The notes: generated by a model from the letters alone, not told the origin. A stretch of DNA of 64,000 bases from an uncultured Anaerolineales bacterium (GCA_964647255.1 CAZYGI010000013.1:1846-65845), one strand, 5' to 3'. Numbered from the stretch's first letter, positions 25,675 to 53,147 are shown. Made by a program: numbers and translations.

Positions 25675-25755
25675 TCACGGCGTCACATCCCAGTCGTACC
25701 AGAACACGTCCGCCAGGTAGCGGTAAGCCGCATCCGAACCCACCAGCAGCACCAT
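25675..25755 (-). pseudogene. orphan 3' fragment of a PLD-like gene (last 26 codons plus stop)
   Basis: The minus-strand translation MVLLVGSDAAYRYLADVFWYDWDVTP* matches the C-terminus of the 53065..54990 product (...MALLVGSDAAYRYLADVFWYDWDVTP*). An in-frame TAG lies immediately upstream at 25756-25758. Weaker DNA resemblance to the PLD gene may extend to ~25900 (not verified). Confidence 0.8.
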
Positions 25756-25757
25756 CT
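25675..25757. repeat. left copy of an 83-bp direct repeat (att-like), 81/83 identical to 53065..53147
   Basis: Direct base-by-base comparison. Mismatches only at 25723/53113 and 25751/53141. Flanking sequence to the left of each copy is unrelated. Confidence 0.9.
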
Positions 25758-26020
25758 ACTCGCCCGATAGGGAGAATCGCAGCTCACCCGCCGCCGGTCT
25801 TCCCGTCTGCCGGCCTGCACCAATCAGCCCACGGCCAAGTTGACGATCCCAACCAGGTGACCTGGGCCTCCCCGAACGGACATAGCTCAGATTGGGCGTT
25901 GCACAGTCTGCAAGCTTACCTCCTGCTGCCCCCAGCCTCTGTTTTAATCGCCAGGACCGCACGCCAAATGCAATTATCTATTTGTATTAAATTAGTATTT
26001 TAATTACTTACGATTTGTAC

Positions 26021-26049
26021 TTGATATGTTTTTATTTTAGATGTATAGT
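26021..26049 (+). promoter_or_regulatory. candidate sigma-70 promoter of the CIS operon (TTGATA-N17-TATAGT) inside an AT-rich tract
   Basis: TTGATA at 26021-26026, a 17-nt spacer, then TATAGT at 26044-26049. It sits in a ~110-nt, very AT-rich stretch (about 25966-26075) in an otherwise GC-rich window, ~95 nt upstream of the sheath start. Confidence 0.5.
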
Positions 26050-26143
26050 CGCTTTGTTCTGATGCCGCAAGGCAATCAAGATCCGATGGCAGGTACGAAC
26101 TTTTCTTGCCGGATTGCATGATTTCTGCAAAAGGAGATTAACG

Positions 26144-27796
26144 ATGCCCGTTGCCCCCCCTGTGACCTATCCTGGAGTGTATATTCAGGAGGTGGAAAGC
26201 CCGGTGCACACCGTGACACCGGTGGCAACATCCACCACGGCGTTTGTCGGCCGGGCGAAGCGCGGCCCCGATGGCAGCCCCGACGGTGGTGGGCCGGAGC
26301 TCATCCACAGCTTCGGCGACTTCCAACGTATCTTCGGCGGTTTGTGGGCCGATAGCCCCCTGGGCTACGCGGTCAACGATTTCTTCCTCAACGGCGGCAG
26401 CGATGCAGTGATCGTCAGGCTGCACAATGGCGCCAAGGCCGCAACCATCACCATGCCGGCGGGTGGCGGCACCGTTGCGCTTCAGGCCAAGTCCAAGGGC
26501 GCATGGGGGAACTCCCTACGCGTGCGTGTGGAGTACGTTTTGCCTGCAAACACATCCTCAACCGATCCTACCTACAAGATGGTTGCGGACAATGTAGCCA
26601 CGCCGCTCGGCGTCACCGATCCGACGGAGCTATTCAACTTGTATGTGTATGATGGTGACAGCGGCGCGACAGAGAAACTGACCAACATCACCGCGAACAC
26701 GGGCGTGCGCACCGTCAACAAGGTGCTGGCCCATGAATCGAGCCTGGTGGCGTGCGCCGATCCCGATATGTCGTGGGCCATCAAACCAGACCCCCACGCG
26801 AAGCTGGTCAAGCCGACCAAGCCCTGGTGGGATGATGACAACGCGGGCGGCTTCACTCCGGCGGATGCCAACAGCGGAAGTGATGGCGGCGCGCTGCAAC
26901 CGACCGATTACACCGGCGATCCGGGAAAGAAAACCGGCATCTATGCACTGGAAAATGCGGATATCTTCAACCTGCTGGTAATCCCCCCCGACACCGCCAA
27001 CGGCGATACGCCTACCGACCCTGTATTGACCACGGCGCTGGCCTACTGCGAGCGCAAACGCGCCATCCTCCTGGTGGATCCGCCCTCTGGATGGGCCCGC
27101 AAGGATAACGCCAAGAACGGCGTGCCGATCAGCGGCCTTGGCCCCAGCGCAAACGCCGCCATCTACTTCCCGCGCATCCGGAAGGCCAACCCGCTGCACC
27201 AAAACCAGATCGAGACCTTCGTGCCCAGCGGCACGGTGGCCGGCATCATTGCGCGCACCGATCTGCAGCGGGGTGTCTGGAAGGCGCCGGCGGGGCTCGA
27301 AGCAACCATGAGCGGTGTGGCGTCGCTGACCGTGCCGCTCACCGACGCCGAGAACGGCGAGCTGAACCCGCTTGGCATCAACTGCCTGCGCACTCTGCCC
27401 GCGGCCGGGAACGTCGTTTGGGGCGCACGCACCACGGTCGGAGACGACCGGCTGTCGTCGCAGTGGAAATATCTGCCGGTCCGGCGCACGGCCCTCTGGA
27501 TCGAGGAAACGCTCTATCGCAGCTCCCAGTGGGCGGTCTTCGAGCCCAACGACGAACCGCTCTGGTCGGCCTTGCGGCTGAATATCGGCGCATTCATGCA
27601 GGGCTTGTTCCGCCAGGGCGCATTCCAGGGCCAATCGCCCAAGGACGCCTATTTCGTCCAGTGCGACAGCACCACCACGACCCAGGCCGACATTGACCGG
27701 GGCATCGTCAATATCGTGGTCGGCTTTGCGCCGCTGAAACCCGCCGAGTTCGTCGTGATCTACATCCAGCAGATCGCCGGCAACATCGCGACATGA
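26144..27796 (+). CDS. contractile tail sheath protein (Afp2-4/Cis2-like)
   Basis: Start at MPVAPPVTYPGVYIQEVES (ATG 26144, AAGGAG 7 nt upstream). The PGVYI.E N-terminal hallmark and the C-terminal GINCLRTLP..GNVVWGARTT...KPAEFVVI block are typical of phage/eCIS sheath proteins. Confidence 0.9.
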   Translation: MPVAPPVTYPGVYIQEVESPVHTVTPVATSTTAFVGRAKRGPDGSPDGGGPELIHSFGDFQRIFGGLWADSPLGYAVNDFFLNGGSDAVIVRLHNGAKAATITMPAGGGTVALQAKSKGAWGNSLRVRVEYVLPANTSSTDPTYKMVADNVATPLGVTDPTELFNLYVYDGDSGATEKLTNITANTGVRTVNKVLAHESSLVACADPDMSWAIKPDPHAKLVKPTKPWWDDDNAGGFTPADANSGSDGGALQPTDYTGDPGKKTGIYALENADIFNLLVIPPDTANGDTPTDPVLTTALAYCERKRAILLVDPPSGWARKDNAKNGVPISGLGPSANAAIYFPRIRKANPLHQNQIETFVPSGTVAGIIARTDLQRGVWKAPAGLEATMSGVASLTVPLTDAENGELNPLGINCLRTLPAAGNVVWGARTTVGDDRLSSQWKYLPVRRTALWIEETLYRSSQWAVFEPNDEPLWSALRLNIGAFMQGLFRQGAFQGQSPKDAYFVQCDSTTTTQADIDRGIVNIVVGFAPLKPAEFVVIYIQQIAGNIAT

Positions 27797-27834
27797 GCAG
27801 CAGCCCTGGGCACGGGCGCTAAGGAGAGAACACC

Positions 27835-28248
27835 ATGGCAGAAAAAGCAAGTTGGACAATGCAGTTGAGGATCGATGGGGGCCCCGCGATCAGCGCGGCC
27901 AGCCAGGTGACCGTGGACGCCTACGACAAGGCGAGCCTTGATCTGACCAAGAACGCGGCCACCAAGACCGTCCAGGTGCAGCCCGCTCCCGGCCTGGCAA
28001 GATACCTGGTGGTCACCGCCAGTGCATACAGCGACCCAAAAGATAACACGGCAAAGGTGAGCTTCAAATTCGCGAAGGCTGATGGCACCCCCATCGGCAA
28101 TGATATCCAGTTGGTGGATGCGCTGGTGGTGACCGGCCAGGCGGCCCTGGCCAGCATCGCGCCGAATTGGACCGGCCTGACGTTCACGAGCACGTTCGCC
28201 GATCCCATCACCGTGAATGTGCTGGTCTGCCGGGCTGCTGCTCCGTGA
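27835..28248 (+). CDS. hypothetical beta-rich 137-aa protein between sheath and tube genes
   Basis: Good RBS (AAGGAGAG). No domain recognised. Confidence 0.55.
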   Translation: MAEKASWTMQLRIDGGPAISAASQVTVDAYDKASLDLTKNAATKTVQVQPAPGLARYLVVTASAYSDPKDNTAKVSFKFAKADGTPIGNDIQLVDALVVTGQAALASIAPNWTGLTFTSTFADPITVNVLVCRAAAP

Positions 28249-28341
28249 TGGCCCGGCGCTGGCACCTCGCGCCGGCCGCGCCCATCGACCTGGCCGCGAT
28301 CCGATCCCGGCCATCACTTCAAAGCCTGAAAAGGAGGAAGC

Positions 28342-28872
28342 ATGCCTGCTCCAGAGTTCACGGTCAACACGTACCGATACGATCCGTCCAAGAAGTTCAA
28401 ATTTCGCGTCAATTGGTATAACAATTATTTGGCCGGCATCAGCAAGGTGGGCGGCCTGACGCGCACCACGCAGGTCGTCAGCCACCGCGAGGGCGGCGAC
28501 CCCAGCAGCAGCCGCAAATCGCCGGGCCAGACCGACTATGGGCCGATCACCCTGGAACGCGGGGTCACGCACGATAAAGACTTCGAGCAGTGGGCCAATA
28601 AGGTCTGGGCCTACGGCAACGCGGCCGGCCAGGAGGTCTCGCTCAAGGATTTCCGCAAGGACATCATCATCGAGCTGTACAACGAGGCCGGGCAGAAGGT
28701 GGTCGCGTACAACGTCCATCGCTGCTGGGTGTCGGAGTTCACGGCGCTGCCCGAGCTGGATGCCGGCGGCAACGCGGTCGCGATCCAATCCATCACGCTG
28801 CAACATGAAGGGTGGGAACGTGACACCTCGGTGGTTGAGCCGACGGAACCGAACTATTTGCTGCCATCGTAA
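28342..28872 (+). CDS. tail tube protein (T4 gp19-like / Afp1-Cis1-like)
   Basis: KFKFRVNW...ISKVGGLTRTTQVVSHREGGDPSSSRKSPGQTDYGPITLERGVTHD..FEQWA matches the conserved phage-tail-region tube family pattern. RBS AAAGGAGG. Confidence 0.85.
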   Translation: MPAPEFTVNTYRYDPSKKFKFRVNWYNNYLAGISKVGGLTRTTQVVSHREGGDPSSSRKSPGQTDYGPITLERGVTHDKDFEQWANKVWAYGNAAGQEVSLKDFRKDIIIELYNEAGQKVVAYNVHRCWVSEFTALPELDAGGNAVAIQSITLQHEGWERDTSVVEPTEPNYLLPS

Positions 28873-28893
28873 GGCTGCCTGCCACATTGGGGG

Positions 28894-29631
28894 ATGCGTG
28901 TGATGCGTACACTCTCTGCCCTGGACCTGGTGCGCGCGTGGGAGGCAGGCCGCGATCGCCATCCGGTGGATCGCGCGCTGCTGCTGCTGGCGCTCGCGTA
29001 CCCCGAGCTCACGCGAGACCAGCTGGCCGCGCTCACCATCGGACAGCGCAACGGCCGGCTCCTGGCGCTGCGCCAGCAGCTTCTGGGCGCGCACTTGAAC
29101 GCGTACGCCGAATGTCCCCAATGCCGCGAAGCGCTGGAATTCTCCATCAACGCGCCATCGCTCCGGTCGCCCGAACCCGCAGAACTGATGTTCACCCTGG
29201 CCATTGATGGATTGGAGGTGCGCCTCCGCCTGCCCGACAGCCTGGATCTGGCGGCCATCAGCGATGTGCCGGGGCCGGATGAGGCCCGACGCCAGCTGTT
29301 CGAGCGCTGTGTGCTGGAGGCCCGGCAAGGCGAGACGCCGGTCGCGGCCGCGGCGTTGTCCGATGAGATCGTGACGGCTTTGGCTGACGCCATGGGCGAA
29401 CGCGATCCGCAGGCGAGCCCGCGCTTCCGATTGAACTGCCCGGCCTGCGGGCACGGCTGGGCCGCCCTGTTCGACATCGTCTCGTACTTCTGGACCGAGA
29501 TCAACGCCTACGCGCAGCGCCTGCTGGGTGAGGTGCATCACCTGGCACGGGCCTATGGCTGGCGCGAAGCCGATATCCTGGCGATGAGCTCAGCTCGGCG
29601 CCAATTCTATCTGAACCTGGCGGGCGAATGA
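28894..29631 (+). CDS. conserved-position hypothetical protein with a CxxC...CxxC zinc-ribbon-like pair
   Basis: ECPQCREAL and NCPACGHGW motifs. Its stop overlaps the next start (ATGA at 29628). Function unknown; I think similar proteins occur after the tube gene in other eCIS loci, but I cannot verify that. Confidence 0.6.
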   Translation: MRVMRTLSALDLVRAWEAGRDRHPVDRALLLLALAYPELTRDQLAALTIGQRNGRLLALRQQLLGAHLNAYAECPQCREALEFSINAPSLRSPEPAELMFTLAIDGLEVRLRLPDSLDLAAISDVPGPDEARRQLFERCVLEARQGETPVAAAALSDEIVTALADAMGERDPQASPRFRLNCPACGHGWAALFDIVSYFWTEINAYAQRLLGEVHHLARAYGWREADILAMSSARRQFYLNLAGE

Positions 29632-31817
29632 ACGATTTTCTGGCCGCGATCGTGACGGCAGTGCAGACGCCCCCGGCTTCACCGATGATCCAGCCGTCCT
29701 TGGCGCCGCACTTTGCGCTCATGCCGGACATCGCCGGCGACAGCATGGCCGTCGGGGGCGATGTCGGTGACCCGCTGTTTGAGGCGGTCGGGATGGCCAA
29801 CGGCGCCTTACCGGGTGCGCCGGATGTTATCCCACCGCTGCTGCCGCTCGGCGTCTATGATGATGACACGGCGCACTTGCCGTGGTCGGAGGCTGAGGCG
29901 CCGGCGTTTGCGGCCGAACCCGGGGACCCGGCCAGTCCGGAGGCTCCGAGCCGATCCACAATCAGCCAACCGGTCTTCGCTGATGCCAGCGCGGATGAAA
30001 CATCTCGCGCCGCCACGATAGATGAATCCGCTCGTAGGAGCGACTTCAGTCGTTCGGCGCAGACCACGGCGGACGAATCCGCTCGTAGTAACGACTTCAG
30101 TCGTTCGGCGCAGACCACGGCGCCTGAAGTCGCTCCTACAAACCGATCCATTTTCAGAGCAGCCAGCCAGGCCTCGCGCGACGCCACAGCAAATGAGAAT
30201 GGACGTCGCAGCTTGCCGCGTTCCGGCGCGAGCCCCGACGTCCCGAACCTCGAAGCTGCTTCACATTCTGGATCAGAACGCTCGCCGCTGTCCGGTTCCG
30301 TTGCAATCACGGACGCTGTTTCAGCGCCGGAGCCGGAGTCCGCGGCGCGCACTGGCGCAACACGGGTGACACCGGGCATTCCACCTGATGCAGACGCGAC
30401 GCGCATCACCGCACAGCCGGTCGTTCCGGCCCCCGCTCACTCGTCATTCGGCACATCTCCCTTGAAGGCGTCCGATGTGGTCGAGCCCGCAGCCGCTAAT
30501 CGGCCGGGCGCAGACGCACCGAAAGCGACCCTCAGGGCGGCAGATGCGCATGGGAGCGCCGGCGCCACGCTGGCTGAAGAGCTCAAACCAGGGCGTACAG
30601 AGCACGAAGTGCAGGCCGGTTCTAAGAGTCATCCTGGCGCCGTTGCGGCTTGGCGGGCGACCGGTGCACCCACACCCGAGAGCCTGTGGGACACCGATCC
30701 CAAGAGAGTTACTTTCGGGATGGAGGCCCTTGTCGGGCGCGCCGCCACGACGGATGAATCCGCTCGTAGTAACGACTTCAGTCGTTCGGCGCAGACCACG
30801 ACGGACAAATCCGCTCGTAGTAACGACTTCAGTCGTTCGGCGCAGACCACGGCGCCTACAGATGCAACGGGTGCGGTGATGCCCGACGAGGTGAAACCAA
30901 GAGCCCTACCAGACTCCCAAACGAACGCGCCCCCCAGGCTTGCGGCTGGCGCACCGCTCGAGGCCACGCGGGCGACGCGCAGCCGAATCCGGCCGGCAGG
31001 ATCCCGCCGCGCCGGGGTGACCCCAGTCCAGGCGCAGGCAGGCGAGGCCATACGCCACGCCGCTCCCGGGCACACCGCTGAGGCTGCGAGCCCCACCTCG
31101 GAGGCCGATGCGAAGCCAACGACATCGTCACTACCCTTCGTAAGTATGGCGCGACCCAGGAGTGAGATACCGCGAGCGACTTTAGCGGAGACAGGCGCGG
31201 CGGCCGCCGAGAACGTAGCGCAAGCTGGCAGCTTGCGCCACTCGCCCGTTCTCAGAGCAGCCGCCCATGCCGTGAGCGGCGCCACCGACGATGAAGCCAG
31301 ACGGGGCAGCTCCCTGCGTGCCGGGGCCAGACCTGCCAACCAGATGTTCAGAGCCGCCAATGAAAGCGGGATGCGAGTGGATGCAGGGCCCATGAACGAC
31401 TCGGACACTGCCCGCCTTGATCCGCGCCGTCCGCGTCCCATGCTCAAAGCGGTGCGTGTCCCTGAGCAGACCGCACCGGTGACAGCCGAGGCGAGGGACA
31501 GCACCCCGGAGCACTTCAACGCGCTGGTCCGCCAGACGGAGCGCGCCGCCACGAGCGGGAGTGTGCGGACCCCATCCATCATCCGGCCTGTGCCGGAAGC
31601 ACCTGCAGCGGTCACAGGCCGGACCGCGGCCTCGGGTCGGTCACAGGTCCAGGAGCTGGCCCCGGCCGAGTCATTGCCCACCATTCGGGTGACCATCGGC
31701 CGCATCGAGGTGCGGGCCCGCAGTACCGAAGCAGCCCCTGTGCCGGCTCGTCCCATGCCGCGCCCCCCGATGTCACTCGACGCGTACCTCGGCCGCGCCG
31801 CAAGAGGCAACCGATGA
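29628..31817 (+). CDS. putative tail-length tape-measure-like protein (Afp14/Cis14-like), low complexity with internal tandem repeats
   Basis: 729 aa, Ala/Pro/Arg/Ser-rich, with four 17-aa DESARSNDFSRSAQTTA units. The C-terminal LPTIRVTIGRIEVRA motif is what I recall from eCIS tape-measure candidates. Translationally coupled on both sides. Confidence 0.5.
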   Translation: MNDFLAAIVTAVQTPPASPMIQPSLAPHFALMPDIAGDSMAVGGDVGDPLFEAVGMANGALPGAPDVIPPLLPLGVYDDDTAHLPWSEAEAPAFAAEPGDPASPEAPSRSTISQPVFADASADETSRAATIDESARRSDFSRSAQTTADESARSNDFSRSAQTTAPEVAPTNRSIFRAASQASRDATANENGRRSLPRSGASPDVPNLEAASHSGSERSPLSGSVAITDAVSAPEPESAARTGATRVTPGIPPDADATRITAQPVVPAPAHSSFGTSPLKASDVVEPAAANRPGADAPKATLRAADAHGSAGATLAEELKPGRTEHEVQAGSKSHPGAVAAWRATGAPTPESLWDTDPKRVTFGMEALVGRAATTDESARSNDFSRSAQTTTDKSARSNDFSRSAQTTAPTDATGAVMPDEVKPRALPDSQTNAPPRLAAGAPLEATRATRSRIRPAGSRRAGVTPVQAQAGEAIRHAAPGHTAEAASPTSEADAKPTTSSLPFVSMARPRSEIPRATLAETGAAAAENVAQAGSLRHSPVLRAAAHAVSGATDDEARRGSSLRAGARPANQMFRAANESGMRVDAGPMNDSDTARLDPRRPRPMLKAVRVPEQTAPVTAEARDSTPEHFNALVRQTERAATSGSVRTPSIIRPVPEAPAAVTGRTAASGRSQVQELAPAESLPTIRVTIGRIEVRARSTEAAPVPARPMPRPPMSLDAYLGRAARGNR
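30021..30122 (+). repeat. 2 x 51-bp in-frame tandem repeat (pair 1) inside the tape-measure-like gene
   Basis: Copies at 30021-30071 and 30072-30122, near-identical. Each contains the palindrome CGACTTCAGTCG. Confidence 0.9.
30753..30854 (+). repeat. 2 x 51-bp in-frame tandem repeat (pair 2), same unit as 30021..30122
   Basis: Copies at 30753-30803 and 30804-30854. The unit GA(T/C)(G/A)AATCCGCTCGTAGTAACGACTTCAGTCGTTCGGCGCAGACCACG is shared with pair 1, 732 bp away. Confidence 0.9.
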
Positions 31818-33004
31818 GCAACGCGCGCGCGATCGCTGTCGTCACCGCGGCCCTGGCCAGCATCTTGACATCGGTGGCCAGGACGGTCCTGTCCGGCACC
31901 GTCATCCATGTGGGGCGGCCAGAGAAACTCCCGGAGCCGGACCGTGATCAGCCCGGCATCAACGTCTTTCTCTTCCAGGTGAGCATCAACGATACGCTGC
32001 GTAACGTGGACCTGCCGATGCGTATGGCCGACGGCCGTCTGGTGCAGCGTCCTACCCTGGGCCTGGATCTGATCTATCTCCTGACCTTTCATGGCCCCGG
32101 CCTTGTGCCTGAGCTGCTGTTGGGACGCACGCTTAGCGCGCTTCACGCCCGTCCGGCGCTGTCACCGGAGCTGGTGGCCAACGCCATCCAACAAAAGGGC
32201 AACGTACCCGGCGATCGCTATCTGCAGGAGACGGACATTGATCAAGCCAAGGGGATCCGTTTCGAGTCGTACCCACTTTCTCTGGAGGAGCTTTCCAAGC
32301 TGTGGTCCGTCTTCTTCCAGATGCCTTACGCCCTCTCGCTGGCCTACCGGGCGACCGCCGTGATGGTCGAGGCTGAGGATTTGCCGGTGCCTGCGCTGCC
32401 GGTGCGTGACATCAGCGCGCGGTCCGGCGCCGGCGGCATCCCGCAGATAGAGCAGATCCTGCCGCCGCTGGTCGAGCCCGACACCCCCATCGTGCTGCGT
32501 GGCCGTAACTTGAGCGCGGCTGACACCTGGATCCAGTTCAGCGGGTCCGCGACGCCCGTGGCGCCACAGGTAACCGCGGATGGCTTGCAGGTCACGCTGC
32601 CCAATGACCTGGCTGCGGGCGCGACGTCCGCGTCGCTGGTCGACGCGACCGGGCGGCCGCTGTCCAACGCCGCGCCGTTTATGCTCCACCCGCGCGTCAT
32701 CAGCGCTGACGTCGCCAACAGGCTGCTCACGGTGAACCTGGTGCCGCAGGTGCAAGCGGGGCAGCGCGTGCGGCTGCTGCTGAATATGGTCGGGAGCCGT
32801 GAGGCGTACACAATCGATGTACCGAACGTGACGCAGTCTACCGGCCAAATTGCGATCCCCGTCCCTGCGCTGCAATCCGGCGGCAGCTACCTGGTGCGCG
32901 TGCAGGTGAATGGCGCGGAGAGCCAGCTCACCACCGTCCCGCCGCCTGATAAGCCGCACAGCCCGGCTCAGCCGTACAACTTCCCGATGGTAACCCTCCC
33001 ATGA
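31814..33004 (+). CDS. DUF4255 (Pvc16/Afp16-like) tail terminator/cap protein with C-terminal IPT-like domain
   Basis: The N-terminus MSNARAIAVVTAALASILTSV...INVFLFQVSIN is typical of the Pvc16 N-terminal domain. The C-terminal PIVLRGRNL...LQVTLP is Ig/IPT-like. ATGA overlaps at both ends. Confidence 0.75.
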   Translation: MSNARAIAVVTAALASILTSVARTVLSGTVIHVGRPEKLPEPDRDQPGINVFLFQVSINDTLRNVDLPMRMADGRLVQRPTLGLDLIYLLTFHGPGLVPELLLGRTLSALHARPALSPELVANAIQQKGNVPGDRYLQETDIDQAKGIRFESYPLSLEELSKLWSVFFQMPYALSLAYRATAVMVEAEDLPVPALPVRDISARSGAGGIPQIEQILPPLVEPDTPIVLRGRNLSAADTWIQFSGSATPVAPQVTADGLQVTLPNDLAAGATSASLVDATGRPLSNAAPFMLHPRVISADVANRLLTVNLVPQVQAGQRVRLLLNMVGSREAYTIDVPNVTQSTGQIAIPVPALQSGGSYLVRVQVNGAESQLTTVPPPDKPHSPAQPYNFPMVTLP

Positions 33005-34989: not shown

Positions 34990-35035
34990 AGGGGCGGCAC
35001 GTGAGATCGGTGAGTAGCTTTGAGGAGAAGCAGGG

Positions 35036-36004: not shown

Positions 36005-36010
36005 GCAATC

Positions 36011-36604
36011 ATGAGATTACTTCGATCTCCCATCGTGAGGGCAGGTGCTGTGGGGGCCACTGCGGCAACGGCAGGATACCAGGCCATGCAACAACGTGAG
36101 GCTGTACCCGCCGGCGCCGGGCATCGAACCGACCAGATGCGGGCCGGCAATGTGCCCACTGACCGAAGCGTCACGGGTTTTGCCAAGAACTGGGTATGGG
36201 ATGATCCCACGCATCAGATCCAGGATCAAGGCCGGCAACAGATTGCTGACGCCACGTCGCGGAGCGATACATTCTATGGCTATCTGGTCGCTCGCACCAA
36301 CCGCGCACTCGACAGAAGCGGTTACGGCTTACCCGGGCACTTGGCAAGACCCATCGCTCAAAACGTTGGAGACGAATCCACGGGCAAAATCACCCAGGCT
36401 CAGGCGCACTGGAATGAGGCGAAGGGATTTGCACACCATTATTTCAAAGAGGGATTGTGGAGAGGCAACAATGAAGCTCGAGATCCCATTTACCTAACCG
36501 GCGCGGCGATGAACACCCTTGGGGCGGGCGGTTCCGCCGCGGCGAGCGCTCTCGCCAGGGGATACAAAGCTGATCCGGATAACAATGAGCCGCCGTGGCT
36601 ATAA
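36011..36604 (+). CDS. hypothetical 197-aa protein
   Basis: An ORF with coding-like composition directly after the hydrolase-like gene. No domain recognised. Confidence 0.45.
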   Translation: MRLLRSPIVRAGAVGATAATAGYQAMQQREAVPAGAGHRTDQMRAGNVPTDRSVTGFAKNWVWDDPTHQIQDQGRQQIADATSRSDTFYGYLVARTNRALDRSGYGLPGHLARPIAQNVGDESTGKITQAQAHWNEAKGFAHHYFKEGLWRGNNEARDPIYLTGAAMNTLGAGGSAAASALARGYKADPDNNEPPWL

Positions 36605-36640
36605 TTTGCGCAGATCCGTTATCGGCATGAGGGAGTGAGA

Positions 36641-36982: not shown

Positions 36983-36992
36983 GGACGCACCT

Positions 36993-37649: not shown

Positions 37650-37658
37650 GGAGTTACC

Positions 37659-37955: not shown

Positions 37956-37956
37956 T

Positions 37957-39096: not shown

Positions 39097-39098
39097 GT

Positions 39099-39794: not shown

Positions 39795-39795
39795 C

Positions 39796-40125: not shown

Positions 40126-40128
40126 TCC

Positions 40129-40479: not shown

Positions 40480-40483
40480 CCCC

Positions 40484-45600: not shown

Positions 45601-47328
45601 GCGCGCTATGACCGCACGACAGCGCGCGCGCTGTTCCAGAGTGAGCCGTTGGCGATCTATGACGACCGGCCGGTGCAGGGCAGCATCCTGGCCCTCGACC
45701 GGGTTGTGACGGACCTGCGGCCAGGCCAACCCGTGATCATCAGCGGCAAGCGCATGCGCGCCCGGTTGATCGCTCCAGCGGACCCCCCCGTCACTTTGAC
45801 AACATTGAACGGGCTGCAAACAGTGCCGATCCGGCCGGGAGAATCGCTGATCGTGCTCAGGCCTCCGCAGCGCCAGGCCGTGACGAACCAAAATGCAAGC
45901 CGGACACGTGGCGACGCCGCTCAGGCCCCCGGCCCAGCGGACCAGCAGCCCACCGCGGAAATCTGGCGCCTGCGCAACCGGGATGGGATCGAGGGCGAGG
46001 CGACCATCGAAGCCGCGACGGACGCGGCCGCGCCTCAGTTCGTCATCGAGCCGCCGCACGACGATGATCCGGAGGTCAACGAGCTTGCCGCGCTCTACGA
46101 TATCGCCGCCAGCGCCGACCGGACGACGCTCACGCTGACCACCGATTTGTCTGCCCCGGACCGGACGCTCAGGCCGCTCGCCAACATGTTCGAGCGGACG
46201 ACGGTTACCCTGCGTGCCAACATCGTTCAGGCCACGCACGGCAGCACGGTACCGCTAGAGGTGCTGGGCAGCAGCGATGGCTCGCAAGCCAATCAACGCT
46301 TCCTGCTGCGCCAGGCCCCGCTGACCTACATCAGCGCCGCCACGCCGGAGGGCCGACAGAGCACGTTGGCCGTCACGGTGGCCGGGGTGCGTTGGCGACA
46401 GGCGCCGTTCCTGTACGGGCATCCGCGCGACGAGCGGGCCTACATCGTGCAGCACGACGAACAAGGCCGGGCCACCATCACCTTCGGCGACGGCCGCGCC
46501 GGTGCGCGCCTGCCCAGCACACGAGAGGAGGTTCGGGCCACCTATCGCATCGGGATCGGCGAGGCAGGAAACGTGCCCGCGGGCAGCCTGACCCAACTGC
46601 GGTCCGCGCCGCCTGGGCTGGCAGGTGTGACCAATCCGCTCCCGGCATCGGGCGGCGTCGAACCGGAGACGAACGACTCAATCCGGGCGAACGTGTCGCT
46701 TGGGCTGCACGCCATGCACCGCATCGTCTCTTTGAGCGACTACGAGGACTTCGTGCGTTCCTTTGCCGGCATCGGGCGGGTGCAAGCCAAGATGTTCCAC
46801 CGCGGTCATGGCGGCCTGTTGCACCTCACCGTTGCCGACGCCGACGGCAACCCACTGCCGCTAACCTCAAACCTTTACCTGAACCTGGTGACGGCGGTTG
46901 AGCGCGCCCGGGTCGCGCCCACGCCACGGCTGCGGATTGATGCCTACGAGCCGGTATTCTTCGATGTCGCGCTCAAGGTGGTCGTGGACCACGACTTCAA
47001 AGCCCGGCAGGCAACGATCGAGCAGCAAGCCAGGCTGGCTTTGAGCAACGCCTTCACGTTCCAGCGCCGCGACTTCGGCCAGGGCGTGTCGGCGTCGGAG
47101 ATCATCAACCTGGTCCAGCCGATCGCTGGGGTCGTGGGTGTCGAGATCACGCAGCTGGCCTATCACGGCAGCAGTCCAACCCAACCGCCCCCCGATACGG
47201 CGCAGGCCGTGGCCGCGCAACCCGCCCGCTGGCCGCAGGACGCCGTCCTTCCCGCACCAGCCCAGTTGCTGTTGATCAACAGTCAGAATCCGAAGGGCAT
47301 CGCCATCGCCGTGGAGTTTGTGCCATGA
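42613..47328 (+). CDS. giant baseplate wedge protein (putative-baseplate-assembly family) with a ~640-aa insertion carrying Asp-box/BNR repeats, two predicted TM helices and an Ala/Thr/Pro linker
   Basis: N-terminal family signature DDWTVALLHAWAAVTDVLGFYHERIINEGYLRTATERLSVVQLARTVGY. Asp-boxes SNDGGATW (43780-43803), SQDEGETW (43906-43929) and STNQGRQW (44104-44127). Hydrophobic helices PVILAGLVLAVLYRLIL (44287-44337) and VLWFLVDAALIAAAIGIVMIAWWLIWRFL (44752-44838). ATGA coupling at both ends. Confidence 0.8.
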   Translation: MNDIAGEHALQLPAVSVERTRINPPGRSQLAYGGGAYLAVLDRMLIRLPRQVIPGPDGGPDLAPFARFNADSGDDWTVALLHAWAAVTDVLGFYHERIINEGYLRTATERLSVVQLARTVGYELHPGLAAGAVLALTVVQGLGEPPRTFFVPKGTAVQSLPSPKSGLHQGTPASSMPQVFETSDDFVARSDWNLLRPAASGELTGEHRILPGTNSLRLLGNRTDLRKGDRLLFIGQDPTHPQRKLWQMAQVKVTAPNAAGFTAVSWESVPGLPAGPLPLLGPDPEPDVEPLAIAAPQLFVLRQQAKLFTYTAAGVYRTWPSQGTAGEPDAGDVATSGSADGQAPAAAHDVQPQPAWWPAGIGLPHEPVDLLLSTRSGHLLGVTTKGIYRSNDGGATWQPAGAGLQARHITALTEGNDGTLYAGTDKGEVHLSQDEGETWRQAAGDPIHLPVRGLGKLAPAILRSTGHLPEVVVTSLAAYRSGGTDVLAAGADSGVFLSTNQGRQWKAANLVLPKLDRKTGMAKVSVQALGVVRAGKRQQLYAGTDEGVFPIRATSSATPVILAGLVLAVLYRLILNPGGILTRQVYTAVVNLTKAAGAAVAALLTRLNEIAGINLPPISDPLATPVAKLIGNVGKAILTPIAQLPATIPVPTATPASTASATATAMATATATPTAMAAVTVTPAATAAAASAPVAAALPKPIAAILAVLDQYPVLWFLVDAALIAAAIGIVMIAWWLIWRFLNNRPGRRIAGALPPAALPAAMPGKLPGVKDLIQQLTAQRPPVAVRDLKANLTGLYAGTAQGVYHAAGPGPGPQDKWLRRLGARLVQIAFPGLLAGWTRLETASQAQPDVQSLALPEPDSLLAATGAGATHHYRYVNNSWKPTEADGAPAALTGIAGTAALGKGLFLAGTPPKAKVDPAWSPWQLQEHAIHLDALPDGIAAGSWLVLDAAGGAQTDQPSPLPRLYQVRKTERADSSDASKKQPLTRVVVDRGDDLARYDRTTARALFQSEPLAIYDDRPVQGSILALDRVVTDLRPGQPVIISGKRMRARLIAPADPPVTLTTLNGLQTVPIRPGESLIVLRPPQRQAVTNQNASRTRGDAAQAPGPADQQPTAEIWRLRNRDGIEGEATIEAATDAAAPQFVIEPPHDDDPEVNELAALYDIAASADRTTLTLTTDLSAPDRTLRPLANMFERTTVTLRANIVQATHGSTVPLEVLGSSDGSQANQRFLLRQAPLTYISAATPEGRQSTLAVTVAGVRWRQAPFLYGHPRDERAYIVQHDEQGRATITFGDGRAGARLPSTREEVRATYRIGIGEAGNVPAGSLTQLRSAPPGLAGVTNPLPASGGVEPETNDSIRANVSLGLHAMHRIVSLSDYEDFVRSFAGIGRVQAKMFHRGHGGLLHLTVADADGNPLPLTSNLYLNLVTAVERARVAPTPRLRIDAYEPVFFDVALKVVVDHDFKARQATIEQQARLALSNAFTFQRRDFGQGVSASEIINLVQPIAGVVGVEITQLAYHGSSPTQPPPDTAQAVAAQPARWPQDAVLPAPAQLLLINSQNPKGIAIAVEFVP

Positions 47329-49694
47329 GTGACAGCATCGAAGAACGCTTCTATGCCCTGTTGCCGCAGTTGTATCGCCATCGTGACATGCTGCAAGGCC
47401 AGCCCCTGCGCGCGCTCCTGGCCGTGCTTGAAGGAGAGTATCAGGCGCTGAGCCAGGACATGCAGGCCACCTACGACAATTGGTTCGTGGACACCTGCGA
47501 TGAGTGGGTGTTGCCCTACCTGGCCGACCTGCTCGGCATCCGCGGCCTGGACCACGTCCAGCACCTGTTTCCCACCCAGCGCCGCCTCGTGGCCAACGCC
47601 CTGGCCTACCGGCGCCGCAAAGGGACCGCAGCCGTCTTGGAGCACGTCTTGCGCGATGTGACCGGCTGGGACGTGCGGGTGGTCGAATTCTTCCAGCTCC
47701 TATCGGTCACCCAACATCTGTCCGCGCTCCGGCCCAACACCGGCCGCAGCGTGGATCTCCGGGAGTCCCTCGCCCTGTCGCAAGCAGGCGGCGCCTTCGA
47801 GCGCTTTGCGCACACCCTGGATGTAAGAGGCAACGAGGCCGAGCTTGTGCTATCCGGTTCTGACCGAGGGGCCCAGCCATCGAAGTATCACCCGGCTAAC
47901 CTGGGCATCTTCGTGTGGCGGCTGCGCGCCTACCCCCTGGATGACACCTTCGCCCGTCCGGTCGCCGGTTCCGCGCACGCGGGGTGCTTCACCTTCGACG
48001 CGGCCGGTCGTTCGGTGCGCCTGTTCAACCGTCCTCAGCCCGTGGATAGCATCCTGGATCGCGCCCAGGCGCCCAATCTGACCATCCCCCTGACCCGCGC
48101 GTTGCTGGACTCTGACCTGCGGGCCGCAGCAGATGAGGCCGGCAACGGCGCCTATTACGGTCCCGACCGCAGCTTCATGATCAGCTATCGAACCGGACCA
48201 GGCGATCCTTTCCAGCCAGTTCAGCCTGAAGGCCTGCTGGTGGCTGACCTCTCTAGCTGGCGCCTTCCACCAGGCCAGCCATCGGACGCGTCCGGCGGCC
48301 CGAAGATCGTCGCCGTGGATCCGGAACTGGGACGGATGAGGTTTCTCTTGCCGCAGGGGCCCAAGGAGATGGGCGACGTCATCGTCAGCTACACCTATGG
48401 CTTCAACGCCGATTTGGGAGGAGGCGCCTACAGCCGCTACGCAGATCTGCAGGCGCTGGAAAACCTCCCCGAACACGCGCTGCGGATCAGTGTCGCCGAG
48501 GGCGGCCTGAGCGAGCTCCCAGCAATCGCGGACGCAAGTGACCGCGACGCTTTAGATTGGCCGCGTCCACTTCGTACGCTCCAGGCGGCCCTGGACGCGT
48601 GGGAACGCTACTGCGAAGACTGCGCGGTCAAAGACCTGCGGCCGATCGGCGCCATCGTCATCCTGGACAACGGGCGCTACGGCGGCAAGTCGCAGCGCGG
48701 TGACAGCCAAACGCTCGATGCGAGCGGCGATCTGGTGATCCGGCTGCCACAGGGCGCGCAATTGTCCATCATCGCCGCCGATGGCGTGCGACCCTCCATC
48801 CGGCCCTTCAATCGGCTGAGGATCACCACGACGCTCGAGCCAATCCCGCGGAAGGGAGTTGAGCCACGGCTGCTGAGCAAAGCCAGTGAGCCATCCGCGC
48901 CCGATCGCCGCCTGCAGTTAAACGGGATCCTGCTCGAGGGCCGGCCCATCGAGATCAACGACGAGCCATTTGATGGCTTCATAGACCTGGAGCTGAAACA
49001 CTGCACGACTCTGGCATCGGGCATCAGGGTCAAGTTACGCTCGCCACGCTCCCAGGCGTTGCGCGTTCGGATCGAAAATAGCATCGTGGGTGCGGTGCGG
49101 CTTCCCAGTGACACCTTCGAGTTGGCGATCGCCGACAGCATCGTAGATTCGGGCGACGAAGAAGATGCCATCGCGGGGAGTAAACCTGGAGAAATGGGGC
49201 CGGCCACAACACTAGAGCGCGTTACGGTCTTGGGCGCTACACGAGTTCTTGAACTGAAGCTGGCCTCGGATGTGATCTTCACCCAGCCCCTGCATGTCGA
49301 GCACTGCCAAGGCGGGCTGATCCGCCGGTGTTATGTACCGCCGGAAAGCCAGGCGACGCCGCGCCGCGAGCACTGCCAACCCGACCTCGCCCTCGAGGCG
49401 CTCGGTCGCATCACAACACCGCCCGACACGGCCGCTGCCGAGGCGCTTGCCGCTGAAAAGGATCGGCTGCAACGGCGAATACGGCCCATCTTCACATCCA
49501 CCGATCCTGGCCATCCCGGCTACGCGCAGTTGCACCCTTCAACCGCCGTCGAGATACGGAGCGGCGGCCAGGCCGGTGCAGAAATGGGCGCATTTCATGA
49601 CCTGTACGAACATCAACGCGTGGCAAACCTGCGCCGAGCGTTGGACGAGTACTTGCCGCTGGGCAAGCAGGTCAGCATCCATTTCGTGACCTAG
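47325..49694 (+). CDS. P2 gpI-like baseplate/tail protein (Afp12/Cis12-like)
   Basis: The N-terminal ERFYALLPQLYRHRD...LRALLAVLEGEYQAL...WFVDTCDEWVLPYLADLLGI is the phage-tail-protein-I-type domain signature. Confidence 0.75.
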   Translation: MSDSIEERFYALLPQLYRHRDMLQGQPLRALLAVLEGEYQALSQDMQATYDNWFVDTCDEWVLPYLADLLGIRGLDHVQHLFPTQRRLVANALAYRRRKGTAAVLEHVLRDVTGWDVRVVEFFQLLSVTQHLSALRPNTGRSVDLRESLALSQAGGAFERFAHTLDVRGNEAELVLSGSDRGAQPSKYHPANLGIFVWRLRAYPLDDTFARPVAGSAHAGCFTFDAAGRSVRLFNRPQPVDSILDRAQAPNLTIPLTRALLDSDLRAAADEAGNGAYYGPDRSFMISYRTGPGDPFQPVQPEGLLVADLSSWRLPPGQPSDASGGPKIVAVDPELGRMRFLLPQGPKEMGDVIVSYTYGFNADLGGGAYSRYADLQALENLPEHALRISVAEGGLSELPAIADASDRDALDWPRPLRTLQAALDAWERYCEDCAVKDLRPIGAIVILDNGRYGGKSQRGDSQTLDASGDLVIRLPQGAQLSIIAADGVRPSIRPFNRLRITTTLEPIPRKGVEPRLLSKASEPSAPDRRLQLNGILLEGRPIEINDEPFDGFIDLELKHCTTLASGIRVKLRSPRSQALRVRIENSIVGAVRLPSDTFELAIADSIVDSGDEEDAIAGSKPGEMGPATTLERVTVLGATRVLELKLASDVIFTQPLHVEHCQGGLIRRCYVPPESQATPRREHCQPDLALEALGRITTPPDTAAAEALAAEKDRLQRRIRPIFTSTDPGHPGYAQLHPSTAVEIRSGGQAGAEMGAFHDLYEHQRVANLRRALDEYLPLGKQVSIHFVT

Positions 49695-49750
49695 TTGCAG
49701 GGATGCGCCGCTGCGCGGTCAGGCATTTTCCACAGACAATGAAGGTAACA

Positions 49751-51655
49751 ATGCGAGGCGATTTCTCACGTTCGACATTTGATCCCAAGCAACACTACAC
49801 CACCGTGCGCATGCAACAGGGCCGGATGCAGCTTGATGCCGACTGGAACGAGCAGATGGACATCCTGTTGCACCTGCTGCGCGTCCAGGCGCAAGACCTG
49901 CTAGGCCCTTACGGCGCACCTGCGCGTTCGGCCGGTTTCGCCATCTCGCTGCCGGAGCGCGGCGGTCTTCAGGACGATCTGCGCATCGCGGCCGGCCGTT
50001 ACTACGTTGACGGCATCCTGGTGGAAAACGATAGCGACACGTTGTTCCGTGCGCAACCGTATTGGCCCAATGCTGACCTGCGGGAGGCCATGCATGACGC
50101 CGACCGCTGCGTGATCTATCTGGATGTGTGGGAGCGACATCTGAGCGGCGCCGAGGCGCCGTCGCTCCTCGAGCCTGCCCTGGGCGGCCTCGATACCACC
50201 ACCCGCACCCAGACCGTGTGGCAGGTGAAACGATGGCCGGCGACCTCCTCGGACAAAGTTCCCCAACCAGCTACGAACAAGGGCCTGTTGAGCGCATGGA
50301 GCCAATGGCGTGATGCGCAGAGCCGACCAGGCGGTTCGGTCGGTCGTGGCGCGCTGCGCCCCAGGGTGACACCGGCCGGTTACGGCCTGACCAATCAGCT
50401 TTATCGGGTCGAAATCCACACCGGAGGCGATGAAGCGACGTTCAAGTGGTCGCGGAACAACGGCTCGGTCACGTTTGTTGTGACGAGCCTACAATTCAAA
50501 GACGCGCTGCTGACGGTCACGTTGGAAGGTGTATCGGCGGCGACGGACCTACAGGTGGGCGACTGGTTGGAACTGGCTGATCCGTCGTACGAGCTAAGCT
50601 CGCGGCCGGCGCCGCTGTTCAAGATCCACGACTCACCCAACTGGGATTCCGCGTCCGCGACGGTCAACCTGGTTCCCGCGACCGCTCCGAGCGAACAAGA
50701 CCGCCAGGAGATCGAGGCCATTGGACAGCACCTATCCCAAGGCAGGCAGATCCAACTGGATGGCATGCGCACAGTCCTGCGGCGTTGGGACCACAATGAG
50801 CATGCCCAGGGGAACAGCGCCGGCCTGGATGGCGCCATCGCGGTGCGACCCAACCAGTGGCTGCCCCTTGAAAACGGCATCGAGGTCCGCTTTGAGGGCG
50901 CCAGTGACCTGCGCACAGGCGACTACTGGCTTATTCCTGCCCGCAGCGAGACCGAGGGCTATTCGCTCCTCTGGCCAGTTGAACCCGCACAGGTCAATGC
51001 AACCCGCAGTGAGGCGTCAGCCGTCGATCCGACTGCCCCTGAAGCAGCATCACAAAGTCTCTCGTATGCGAAGCAACCTGCGCAGCGGATCGAACACCAT
51101 CTTGCCCCTTTGGCGGTGCTCTTCCGCGACGGAACAGCTCCGGCCGTGTCCGACCTGCGAACGCTCTTCCAGCCCGTTGTCGGCTTCGAATCTGACGAAA
51201 CCGCTATCGAGCAACGCCTGCAGGGTGCGATTGACGCGCTGAGGGGCGAAATCACCCAAATGTCGTCTGCGGTCTACCCGGTGGCCGATCCCAGCGCCGG
51301 CCTCGAATCAGGCCAGGTGGTTGCCCTGGATCCGGTCAGCGGCGGCATCGAGCTGGCCAAACGCAGCAATGCATCCCTTGTCGTCGGCGTGACGCTCGGT
51401 CCCTTTGGCGACTGGGAGGAGCGGAAACAGGCAACCCCAAGCTACCGGGTAGCGCAAACCGGCCGCCACCAATGCCTGGTGCGCGGTCGGATTGAGCCCG
51501 GCGACCTGCTGGTACCCTCGGATGTGCCCGGCTATGCCATGTCGGCAGGACTGATTATCCAGCCAGGCGCGGTGATCGGCAAGGCGCTACAGGCCCACCA
51601 CCCAACCGATGTCAAAGAGGTTGCAACGATCGCCATCATGGTGACCTTACAGTAA
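49751..51655 (+). CDS. DUF6519-like protein (CIS-associated, function unknown)
   Basis: Start set at MRGDFSRSTFDPKQHYTTVRMQQGRMQLDADWNEQ (ATG 49751). I recall this N-terminal motif from DUF6519-type proteins encoded at the distal end of eCIS loci (memory only). Confidence 0.6.
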   Translation: MRGDFSRSTFDPKQHYTTVRMQQGRMQLDADWNEQMDILLHLLRVQAQDLLGPYGAPARSAGFAISLPERGGLQDDLRIAAGRYYVDGILVENDSDTLFRAQPYWPNADLREAMHDADRCVIYLDVWERHLSGAEAPSLLEPALGGLDTTTRTQTVWQVKRWPATSSDKVPQPATNKGLLSAWSQWRDAQSRPGGSVGRGALRPRVTPAGYGLTNQLYRVEIHTGGDEATFKWSRNNGSVTFVVTSLQFKDALLTVTLEGVSAATDLQVGDWLELADPSYELSSRPAPLFKIHDSPNWDSASATVNLVPATAPSEQDRQEIEAIGQHLSQGRQIQLDGMRTVLRRWDHNEHAQGNSAGLDGAIAVRPNQWLPLENGIEVRFEGASDLRTGDYWLIPARSETEGYSLLWPVEPAQVNATRSEASAVDPTAPEAASQSLSYAKQPAQRIEHHLAPLAVLFRDGTAPAVSDLRTLFQPVVGFESDETAIEQRLQGAIDALRGEITQMSSAVYPVADPSAGLESGQVVALDPVSGGIELAKRSNASLVVGVTLGPFGDWEERKQATPSYRVAQTGRHQCLVRGRIEPGDLLVPSDVPGYAMSAGLIIQPGAVIGKALQAHHPTDVKEVATIAIMVTLQ

Positions 51656-51667
51656 GGAGGATGGATC

Positions 51668-52444
51668 ATGATTAACTTCAAGAATGGGGGCTTTCTGCTG
51701 GGATTGCTGGCGGGTGCGGCGCTGACGGCGCTGTTAGGCATCTTCGTGCTGACGCTGATCCAAACCGCCAGGCCTGCGCCGGTCGTGACGCCAACCGACA
51801 CGCCCACAACCGAGCCAACGCACACGCCTACACCAGTCACGCTAACCGACACGCCCACAACCGAGCCAACGTACACGCCCACACCAGTCATGCTAACCGA
51901 CACGCCCACAACCGAGCCAACGTACACGCCCACCCAGACGCCTACACCGGCTACGCCTACGGTTACCCCGGCAGTGCCATCTGTGACCCCAAACACTGTG
52001 GGTGGATCCGGGGGGAGTCCCTATTCGTTAGCCTGTCCGCCAGGATCCGCGGCCACTGGCATCCAGGGGCGGGCTGGTAGTAACGTCAACCAGGTGCGGG
52101 TGCGGTGTCAGGGCATCGTCGATGCGACGCTCTCCGGGGCGAGCTCAACGACAGCCAGCGCGGGCGGCGGGGGAGGCTCTCCCTATGACCTGGGCTGCCC
52201 CGCTGGCTACGTTGTAGTAGGCATCCGCGGGAGGGTCGGGAACGGTGGCGCAGGGGTCGTGGATATGCTGGGCGTTGACTGCGCCGCACCGGCGGGAGGC
52301 CCCACGTTTACCACCGCCTCGGTTGGGACGATCTTCGGCGGTTCAATCGAGTATAGCCTGAGGTGCCCAGCCGGCACGATCGTCAGGGGTCTGCAAGGAA
52401 GAGCAGGGGACCTCGTCGACGCCATCGGGCTGCAATGCCAATAG
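51668..52444 (+). CDS. membrane-anchored protein with a Thr/Pro tandem-repeat linker and three Cys-containing lectin-like (jacalin/beta-prism-like) repeats
   Basis: AAGGAGG 7 nt upstream. N-terminal TM GGFLLGLLAGAALTALLGIFVLTLI. The 17-aa TDTPTTEPT(H/Y)TPTPV(T/M)L unit occurs about 2.7 times. Three repeats of GG(S/G)GGSPY.L.CP.G....GI.GR.G......V.C. Confidence 0.7.
   Translation: MINFKNGGFLLGLLAGAALTALLGIFVLTLIQTARPAPVVTPTDTPTTEPTHTPTPVTLTDTPTTEPTYTPTPVMLTDTPTTEPTYTPTQTPTPATPTVTPAVPSVTPNTVGGSGGSPYSLACPPGSAATGIQGRAGSNVNQVRVRCQGIVDATLSGASSTTASAGGGGGSPYDLGCPAGYVVVGIRGRVGNGGAGVVDMLGVDCAAPAGGPTFTTASVGTIFGGSIEYSLRCPAGTIVRGLQGRAGDLVDAIGLQCQ
51793..51932 (+). repeat. 51-bp in-frame tandem repeat (about 2.7 copies) encoding the Thr/Pro linker
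   Basis: Copies start at 51793, 51844 and 51895, with only a few substitutions. Confidence 0.9.
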
Positions 52445-52573
52445 GCGCGACTGCGAGCAGCCGCGCAACCGGTCTCTGTGCCCGGTTTCAGCCTGTCAGA
52501 CGGCGCCTGAAGTGCTATCGTTGGAGGCCGCGCGCGCTGCTCGTGAGCGTCCCAGACGCAAAGGAGTCATAGA

Positions 52574-52620
52574 CCGCCGGCAAAGCCGGCGGCTTGAGAT
52601 TTGAGCCGCTCAAAGCGGCT
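52574..52620 (+). other. two consecutive perfect short hairpins downstream of the last CIS gene
   Basis: CCGCCGGC-AAA-GCCGGCGG (52574-52592) and AGCCGCT-CAA-AGCGGCT (52604-52620). Neither has a clear U-tract. Confidence 0.6.
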
Positions 52621-52767
52621 AGCGGAGCGCCTGACGGCGCGTCTGAAGCACGTTTCGCCGTGCCAATTGACATGCGTCTGCCGTCCAGTTCGGGGAACAC
52701 AACCAAACGATGCCTCTATGTGCGACATCGCGCTTGCAGCCCGATCTCGTGTACGCTAGACTGTCTT

Positions 52768-52887
52768 GGGAGTCGTGCAGAGCCACCTTGCGGGAATCTT
52801 GAGCGGTTCACGCTGGCGGATTCCACACGACTCCCGGAACTGTCAAACTCTACAAGTCTCCCCGGCAGAGCCGGGGGTTTCCCTTTT
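52768..52887 (+). ncRNA. candidate structured small RNA or leader remnant ending in an intrinsic terminator
   Basis: A perfect 10-bp long-range pairing, GGGAGTCGTG (52768-52777) with CACGACTCCC (52826-52835), is followed by the hairpin CCCCGGC-AGA-GCCGGGG (52860-52876) and GTTTCCCTTTTC. No convincing ORF spans it. The promoter is only weakly supported (TTGCAG-N17-TAGACT around 52734-52762). Confidence 0.25.
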
Positions 52888-52893
52888 CAATGA

Positions 52894-53060
52894 TCATGCC
52901 AGCAAAGGGTACTTCTGCCACACCGGCCGATCGGCCGCATCATAGTCCCATTGGGTGACGAACGTGCCGCCGCCCGTTCCGCTGACGACTTTGGTCGCTT
53001 GGGGTCACGCAGCCGCGCGTCGTAGGTCCAACTGGCTCTGCCGGAACTATCGCTCAGGCT
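52894..53060 (-). pseudogene. RHS/YD-repeat gene remnant (frameshifted fragment)
   Basis: Minus-strand translations give ...SWTYDARLRD (one frame) and PQATKVVSGTGGGTFVTQWDYDAADRPVWQKYPLLA* (frame shifted by 1 nt near 53004). Both contain YD-repeat-like motifs (xTYDA, WDYDAADR). Confidence 0.45.
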
Positions 53061-53064
53061 GCGC

Positions 53065-53147
53065 TCACGGCGTCACATCCCAGTCGTACCAGAACACGTC
53101 CGCCAGGTAGCGATAAGCCGCATCCGAACCCACCAGCAGCGCCATCT
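53065..53147. repeat. right copy of the 83-bp direct repeat (att-like); coincides with the last 27 codons (including the stop) of the PLD-like gene
   Basis: See 25675..25757. The offset between copies is 27,390 bp. Confidence 0.9.

Follow-up and report, generated by a model that had tools for sequence, protein, structure and literature searches.

In a window of 64,000 nucleotides from an uncultured Anaerolineales bacterium (GCA_964647255.1, CAZYGI010000013.1:1846-65845), an operon for an extracellular contractile injection system (eCIS) of the Afp/PVC type is bracketed by two copies of an 83-bp direct repeat that duplicates the 3' end of a phospholipase D-like (PLD-like) gene. The window is the whole of this stretch, and all positions are counted from its first letter. 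The 83-bp repeat is genuine and far beyond chance. The locus is a repeat-bounded chromosomal island with a bare eCIS operon as its cargo, and duplication of a gene end around an island is in itself already a classic pattern. With moderate confidence, we read the repeat as the fixed scar of a single-crossover insertion at a gene end that is prone to recombination.

The direct repeat and its reproducibility

Alignment of the two regions and a repeat search across the whole window both recovered the pair described in the initial annotation. The copies, at 25675-25757 and 53065-53147, are identical at 81 of 83 positions, have the same orientation and lie 27,390 bp apart from start to start. When the PLD-like gene was compared by BLAST with the rest of the window, the repeat pair gave an E-value of 2e-35, and there were just two other, far weaker matches. 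The right copy consists of codons 615-641 and the stop of a full-length gene of 641 amino acids, leaving the target gene intact, as had been annotated. The reading of the left copy as an orphan likewise stands: it encodes MVLLVGSDAAYRYLADVFWYDWDVTP followed by the stop codon, and it is preceded by an in-frame stop.

The edges of the repeat are sharp. Identity between the left and right flanks collapses on both sides, which includes the unrelated sequence already noted to the left of the two copies, and the outer edge falls exactly on the stop codon of the PLD-like gene. A weaker PLD resemblance had also been suspected over about 150 nt to the right of the left copy. This was not borne out, as local alignments of 40-200 nt past the inner edge gave p=0.11-0.42 against dinucleotide shuffles. 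An apparent extension of the left copy at the protein level, in tblastn and with a hidden Markov model (HMM), came down to matches at about 4 of 11 residues, with a stop inserted, and was rejected. A decayed long PLD pseudogene carrying a gene-converted patch was also set aside, since the flanks show no significant similarity and the exact runs in common with other alleles are, even at their longest, too short for conversion.

The features of the island and its borders are the following, where L010, L011 and L015 are contigs of the same species and L100 and L104 carry homologous operons from related lineages.

22899-25367, plus strand: PAS/HisKA_3 histidine kinase gene (Pfam), the last gene of the left synteny block
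25348-25375, plus strand, inverted: scrap (c), the last 28 nt of the PLD-like gene including the stop, 24 of 28 identical
25403-25463, minus strand: scrap (b), amino acids 508-530 of the PLD-like protein, found by repeat search, tblastn, blastn and a PLD-family HMM
25675-25757, minus strand: left (orphan) copy of the repeat, equal to PLD codons 615-641 and the stop, also in L015 and L011
25758-25975, no strand: GC-rich lineage-specific spacer from the orphan copy to the conserved promoter region of the operon, not common to L100 or L104
25976-26143, plus strand: AT-rich upstream region of the operon, conserved in three lineages, with a promoter-like TTGATA-17-TATAGT at 26021-26049
26144-52444, plus strand: Afp/PVC-type eCIS operon (Pfam), with the same gene order in L015 and L100
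52445-53064, no strand: spacer of 620 nt from the last gene of the operon to the PLD stop, with a terminator-like hairpin at 52859-52877; 52767-53064 is reproduced in L010
53065-53147, minus strand: right repeat copy, forming the functional PLD 3' end, identical in L010
53065-54990, minus strand: PLD-like gene, 641 amino acids, with a PLDc_2 domain (Pfam), a weak LTD match below cutoff and a signal-peptide-like N-terminus

Each of the two junctions is found again in independent metagenome assemblies of the same species, so they did not arise as a fault of a single assembly. The exact kinase and sheath proteins, together with a PLD-like protein of the same 90% cluster, are found on one NCBI contig of 69.9 kb. 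The ENA scaffold L015, from another sample and another assembler, is about 98% identical to the window overall and about 99.3% identical outside a variable stretch between the sheath and tube genes; it is collinear with 12937-35421 and spans the kinase gene, the scraps, the left copy and the sheath gene without a break. The Logan contig L011 (96% identical) begins inside the left copy and continues into the sheath gene. On the other side, the ENA contig L010 (99.7%) runs from the fumarase genes through the PLD-like gene into 298 nt of the spacer on the operon side, reproducing the right junction. A repeat copy is present in all three of these same-species contigs, which span either junction at 96-99.7% identity, and the two positions that separate the repeat copies are retained in other assemblies. 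The source is itself a metagenome-assembled contig and L011 breaks inside the repeat, as might be expected if a copy or a junction had been created by mis-joining at a short shared sequence. This explanation is largely refuted and hardly credible, given that the left junction is continuous in L015, the right junction is continuous in L010 and the two differences between the copies are preserved in other assemblies.

PLD-derived pieces and gene contexts

Three PLD-derived pieces, the left copy among them, lie within 410 nt at the junction between the kinase gene and the operon, in mixed order and orientation, and nowhere else in the 64 kb. The other two, scraps (b) and (c), had escaped the initial annotation. 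Scrap (b) is 79% identical to the resident PLD-like gene at the nucleotide level (blastn E=2e-10), matches it at 15 of 20 amino acids and is recognised by the PLD-family HMM (domain E=2e-6); its distance to the PLD orthologues is much the same for all of them (45-50 of 61 positions). It is located downstream of the stop of the orphan copy, on the wrong side of that copy, and is thus not collinear with the PLD-like gene. Scrap (c), with E=0.008 against the whole window, has its boundary exactly at the PLD stop codon and forms the very end of the kinase gene, coding for its final residues and the stop. The 83-nt copy is less diverged than either scrap (Fisher p=4e-4 against scrap (b) and p=0.03 against scrap (c)). 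This gap in divergence implies that PLD fragments were deposited here more than once, and scraps (b) and (c) are older than the 83-bp copy.

The kinase gene ends at 25367, and a LuxR-type response regulator is also found with it to the left of the island. The C-terminal tail of the kinase (25317-25367) is 17 amino acids longer than in the closest orthologues and runs into scrap (c). As this tail is missing from those orthologues, synteny breaks right at the end of the kinase gene. The spacer from the kinase to the sheath gene is about 99% conserved between strains, equal to the genome average, and the left spacer matches no Rfam RNA family. A tblastx comparison with the cytochrome c gene that precedes the L100 operon suggested remnants of it in the junction; these matches lay in frames that are not coding, did not reappear when the actual protein was used in tblastn and were discarded as spurious.

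The contexts of the PLD orthologues were compared using one genome per species, which gave nine loci and, with L014, ten, each with up to 10 kb of downstream sequence. In none of the ten is a CIS gene or a kinase gene found downstream; unrelated genes follow instead. The fumarase/CsoR side of the locus is common only to the closest genome, L001, whose PLD-like protein is 80% identical. A second copy of the PLD end is absent from nine of these ten loci over the same distance, and the remaining one, L004, has a weak match of 26 nt (E=0.005). Orthologues of the kinase (two loci, about 70% amino acid identity) keep the upstream synteny and have, on their downstream side, an OmpR-type regulator and Big_13 proteins instead of PLD or CIS genes. 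In one relative the PLD and kinase orthologues are on the same contig, about 230 kb apart. The 90% clusters of both proteins contain occupied contigs only, plus one allele, L102, described below. The comparison with relatives that had been proposed in search of an empty site therefore yielded no adjacency of PLD and kinase: same-species contigs are occupied, and distant relatives have the two genes in unrelated places. In the source species, the operon sits exactly where two synteny blocks meet.

The CIS operon has closer relatives than its flanking genes do. In L100 (GCA_037441915.1) the sheath protein is 88% identical, nucleotide identity is about 87% in the first genes and about 81% further on, and the operon is preceded by ActD and two cytochrome c genes. 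The operon of L104 (about 87% nucleotide identity, with a sheath protein that is 89% identical) is preceded by a surface-protein gene. The upstream genes in the window, L100 and L104 are thus unlike, placing the operon in three contexts across three related lineages. By nucleotide BLAST, homology to the window begins 42 nt (L100) and 14 nt (L104) before the sheath start codon ATG. A three-way alignment with L100 and L104 extends a weaker conservation of the promoter region to about 170 nt upstream of the sheath gene, so that the shared module starts at about 25976. This AT-rich region corresponds to 25976-26143 in the window, 2790-2968 in L100 and 1090-1267 in L104, though the genes upstream of it are unrelated.

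For a comparison of the right end, a search with the DUF6519 protein returned no viral contigs, and its metagenome contigs, at no more than about 38% identity over most of the protein, were too distant; the exact jacalin-like protein of the last gene has no database record. In a further contig, L101 (ENA contig_127725, 10001-15000), sheath and tube homologues (74% amino acid and 82% nucleotide identity) are interleaved with metabolic genes of no relation to them, among which are Meth_synt_2, NUDIX and Lyase_1. It would be either a broken-up CIS locus or a mis-assembly, and was excluded as context evidence because of its mosaic appearance.

A different allele is represented by L102 (ENA ERZ28614797, scaffold_28751), a single metagenome scaffold of 2,689 bp. 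Its identity to the window is 99.7% across the body of the PLD-like gene and close to complete in the upstream DNA that it covers, and drops to 69 of 83 positions in the last 83 nt of the gene. These are closer to L103 (76 of 83), whose PLD-like gene is 77% identical overall. After the PLD stop, L102 is unrelated to either flank in the window, and its tail of 56 nt has homology to the sequences that follow the PLD-like gene in L014 (z=7.5) and in L103; the switched segment covers 2551-2689. The loss of identity at the PLD end places a recombination breakpoint within a few nucleotides of the inner edge of the repeat. If real, L102 may be a natural mosaic allele that would represent a second configuration of the recombination junction, which is suggestive only.

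Origin of the repeat

In the insertion that we favour, the operon and its promoter region, together with 83 nt duplicating the PLD end, would have been part of a circular or looped intermediate that recombined with the chromosomal PLD end by a single reciprocal (Campbell-type) crossover. The right copy would then have become the working gene end and the left copy the orphan. Either a recombinase encoded at another locus or RecA, acting on the 83-nt homology, may have carried out the crossover, and the data fit both alike. The structure would now be fixed in the source species, without a mobility gene, and PLD-end sequences would have recombined at this place more than once, as suggested by the two older scraps and by the change of ancestry in L102 at the inner edge. 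We infer the crossover mechanism, the direction of the event and the arrival of the operon as one unit from these patterns.

A Campbell-type single crossover, or homology-facilitated illegitimate recombination, duplicates exactly the shared homology and needs no integrase of the element, and a native-like composition is expected after such an integration if the donor is a close relative. In comparison with that model, 83 nt is short for a RecA-mediated crossover, and the circular intermediate is hypothetical. Single-crossover insertion is favoured by two pieces, the 83-nt one and scrap (c), having an end precisely at the PLD stop, and the edge at the stop codon, together with the conserved C-terminus, agrees with incoming DNA that either brought a gene end along or matched the existing one. 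Furthermore, the intact target gene, the single-operon content and the differing contexts in relatives favour an insertion resembling those flanked by attL and attR sites.

Several observations weigh against such an insertion. No empty site, with the PLD-like gene abutting the kinase gene, was found among the PLD loci, the two kinase contexts or the 90% clusters. Searches with Pfam gave no recombinase, transposase or excisionase in the tested open reading frames (ORFs) of the island and its flanks or, for the spacers 25368-26143 and 52445-53064, in the ten longest translations from stop to stop, in agreement with the earlier statement that the island holds no integrase. Foreign composition was not detected in the island, with a tetranucleotide correlation of r=0.984 between island and flanks and a GC content at third codon positions (GC3) of 0.69-0.86, inside the range of the flanks. 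Upstream of the L100 and L104 operons there is no PLD fragment, so PLD targeting is not a family trait. Scraps (b) and (c) lie in what should be native downstream DNA, non-collinear or inverted and more diverged, and extra events are therefore needed to account for them. As for L102, the inner edge of the repeat falls in a stretch conserved across PLD orthologues, which weakens the coincidence with its breakpoint somewhat. It is also not the predicted attB, since both copies in the window are of one sequence type and L102 of another, and neither of its flanks matches; and it could be a chimeric contig end. The proposal of the initial annotation that the island is an attL/attR cassette is accordingly upheld as far as the direct repeat, the intact target, the one-unit content and the other contexts in relatives are concerned, and fails to find support in an empty site, a recombinase, a foreign composition or PLD targeting in L100 and L104, nor do the extra scraps and L102, not being attB, speak for it.

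Some of the same observations can be read in another way. If the CIS operon and the PLD-like gene were already neighbours, illegitimate or replicative repair, by template switching or end joining, may have joined the kinase block upstream and pasted PLD pieces into the new junction, in which case the repeat would say nothing about the mobility of a cassette. Templated or filler insertions are generally known to leave clusters of short fragments of nearby genes, in mixed orientation, at a synteny breakpoint; here the three PLD pieces are confined to 410 nt of the 64 kb, the kinase stop marks the synteny break, the orphan copy and the conserved promoter region are set apart by about 220 nt of lineage-specific DNA, no recombinase was found and the composition is native. 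We nevertheless consider this origin rather unlikely. A copy of the resident gene should continue into its present downstream sequence, whereas the 83-nt piece and scrap (c) both stop at the PLD stop codon. Unlike filler insertions, moreover, the fragments differ in age: their divergence differs significantly, which excludes one event, and scrap (b) is no closer to the resident PLD-like gene than to other orthologues.

It is also conceivable that the gene end is a true attachment site. In one form of this idea, the last 27 codons of the PLD-like gene would serve a recombinase acting in trans, the bare eCIS operon would be exchanged between strains, L102 would be an alternative occupant or allele and the scraps relics of earlier visits, all of which we regard as doubtful. 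At least as doubtful is an active cassette without an integrase of its own, for which PLD codons ~614-641 would be the true attB, with excision and integration by a recombinase encoded elsewhere or on a helper. The classic attL/attR geometry with a restored target gene, the varied settings in which relatives carry the operon and the L102 breakpoint at the inner edge of the repeat are in keeping with an active cassette. Against it, strains up to about 4% diverged (96-99.7% identity) all keep the island in place, no empty site was found and no helper gene lies within the 64 kb, the operons of relatives have no PLD fragments upstream, and L102 has neither the predicted attB sequence nor a matching flank. 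A regulatory role of the left copy is a very remote alternative: the orphan, placed on the sense strand between the kinase gene and the CIS promoter, would if transcribed be antisense to the 3' end of the PLD mRNA and might couple the expression of PLD to the kinase or the CIS locus. Its sequence is complementary to that mRNA at 81 of 83 positions and it has been kept with one or two changes in three strains. The whole spacer, however, is about 99% conserved like the genome average, indicating no extra constraint on the copy; there is no adjacent promoter-like or terminator-like signal and no Rfam match, and no such copy occurs in nine other PLD loci scanned for self-repeats.

The cargo, its neighbours and known systems

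Nothing but the eCIS operon, its upstream region and the 620-nt 3' spacer lies between the repeat copies. The operon encodes predicted sheath, gp19-like tube, T4-baseplate-like and Pvc16_N proteins, an AAA ATPase, a second CIS tube protein and a VgrG-like OB spike, followed in the inventory by gp25, two baseplate-J-like proteins, a P2-I-like protein and a DUF6519 protein. The matches are to PF04984/PF17482, PF06841, PF19266, PF04965, PF04865, PF09684, PF04717, PF00004 and PF14065; there is also a weak PAAR match (PF05488) that scores below its cut-off, and the last gene is weakly jacalin-like. By this predicted content, the genes make up an eCIS of the Afp/PVC type in one co-directional operon.

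Some parts of the operon are variable or repetitive. Between 26400 and 28600, covering the central part of the sheath gene, a small gene (27835-28248) and the start of the tube gene, identity to L015 (13460-15700) is 66-93%, against about 99.3% elsewhere. Parts of the particle that are exposed may thus have undergone allelic replacement or diversifying change. The ORF at 29628-31817 encodes a CIS protein of 729 amino acids without a Pfam match, which is the least conserved part of the operon in comparison with L100. It contains two pairs of repeats spaced by 51 nt (30006-30176 and 30687-30857), encoding ...DESARSNDFSRSAQTT... motifs. The last gene of the operon (51668-52444) carries at 51785-51949 three to four tandem 51-nt repeats that encode a Thr/Pro-rich linker before the weak jacalin-like domain.

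In the spacer at 52445-53064 no convincing ORF and no significant Pfam match was found, and Rfam returned just four chance-level matches far below the gathering scores. GC-rich hairpins are visible by eye near 52577-52625, and a terminator-like hairpin with a T-run (52859-52887) lies 415 nt past the stop codon of the last CIS gene. The spacer could contain a small RNA or a long 3' untranslated region.

The PLD-like protein has 454 homologues, and the closest ones from other species are 80-81% identical. Its length of 641 amino acids compares with 632-662 in most of the close full-length homologues, its PLDc_2 domain (PF13091) is matched by Pfam with E=2.7e-20, and its C-terminus, ...WYDWDVTP before the stop, is the conserved end of the family. 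Read by eye from the sequence, the N-terminus resembles a signal peptide. To the right of the gene are those for the alpha and beta subunits of fumarase, a CsoR-like repressor, tRNA-Val and ThrRS. Further to the left in the window, two genes on the minus strand (7065-10442 and 13979-20821) encode very large secreted-looking proteins and adjoin multicopper oxidase, cupredoxin and subtilase genes. One of the two has internal repeats of about 330 nt; the other has 2,280 amino acids and a counterpart in L015 annotated with SdrD_B and TIG. This block is syntenic with the relatives L012 and L013.

Islands and prophages that target gene ends and are flanked by attL and attR include those at tRNA and tmRNA genes and the islands with dusA-specific integrases (PMC4482086). 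The island described here resembles them in that the end of the target gene is present twice as a direct repeat, the target is intact, the cargo is coherent and the edge coincides with the end of a coding sequence. It differs in having no tyrosine or serine recombinase or excisionase at its two ends or among the tested ORFs of the window, no empty attB that could be found and a native composition, in the older scraps of the target gene beside the left copy, one of them inverted, and in its cargo, a bare eCIS operon.

Afp/PVC-type eCIS have spread horizontally and are sometimes plasmid-borne (reviewed in PMC10598620, citing Chen 2019 and Geller 2021). That review treats their spread via phylogeny, prophage association and plasmid carriage, and no mention of integrases or att sites was found there. 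The operon in the window is like these systems in the content and order of the sheath, tubes, Pvc16-like protein, AAA ATPase, spike, gp25, J-like and I-like proteins. Unlike in known eCIS, where transfer was inferred from phylogeny or plasmids, a defined repeat pair is located here at the ends of a chromosomal operon.

So far the evidence bears out only a fixed insertion scar at a gene end prone to recombination, which is an ordinary kind of genome feature. If the repeat were a true att site served in trans, the island would be a minimal mobilisable eCIS cassette; on that attachment-site reading, if true, it would be the first case of defined att sites around an eCIS cassette, and one in Chloroflexota. 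The clean, repeat-defined ends of the island give a concrete junction for learning how eCIS operons are acquired.

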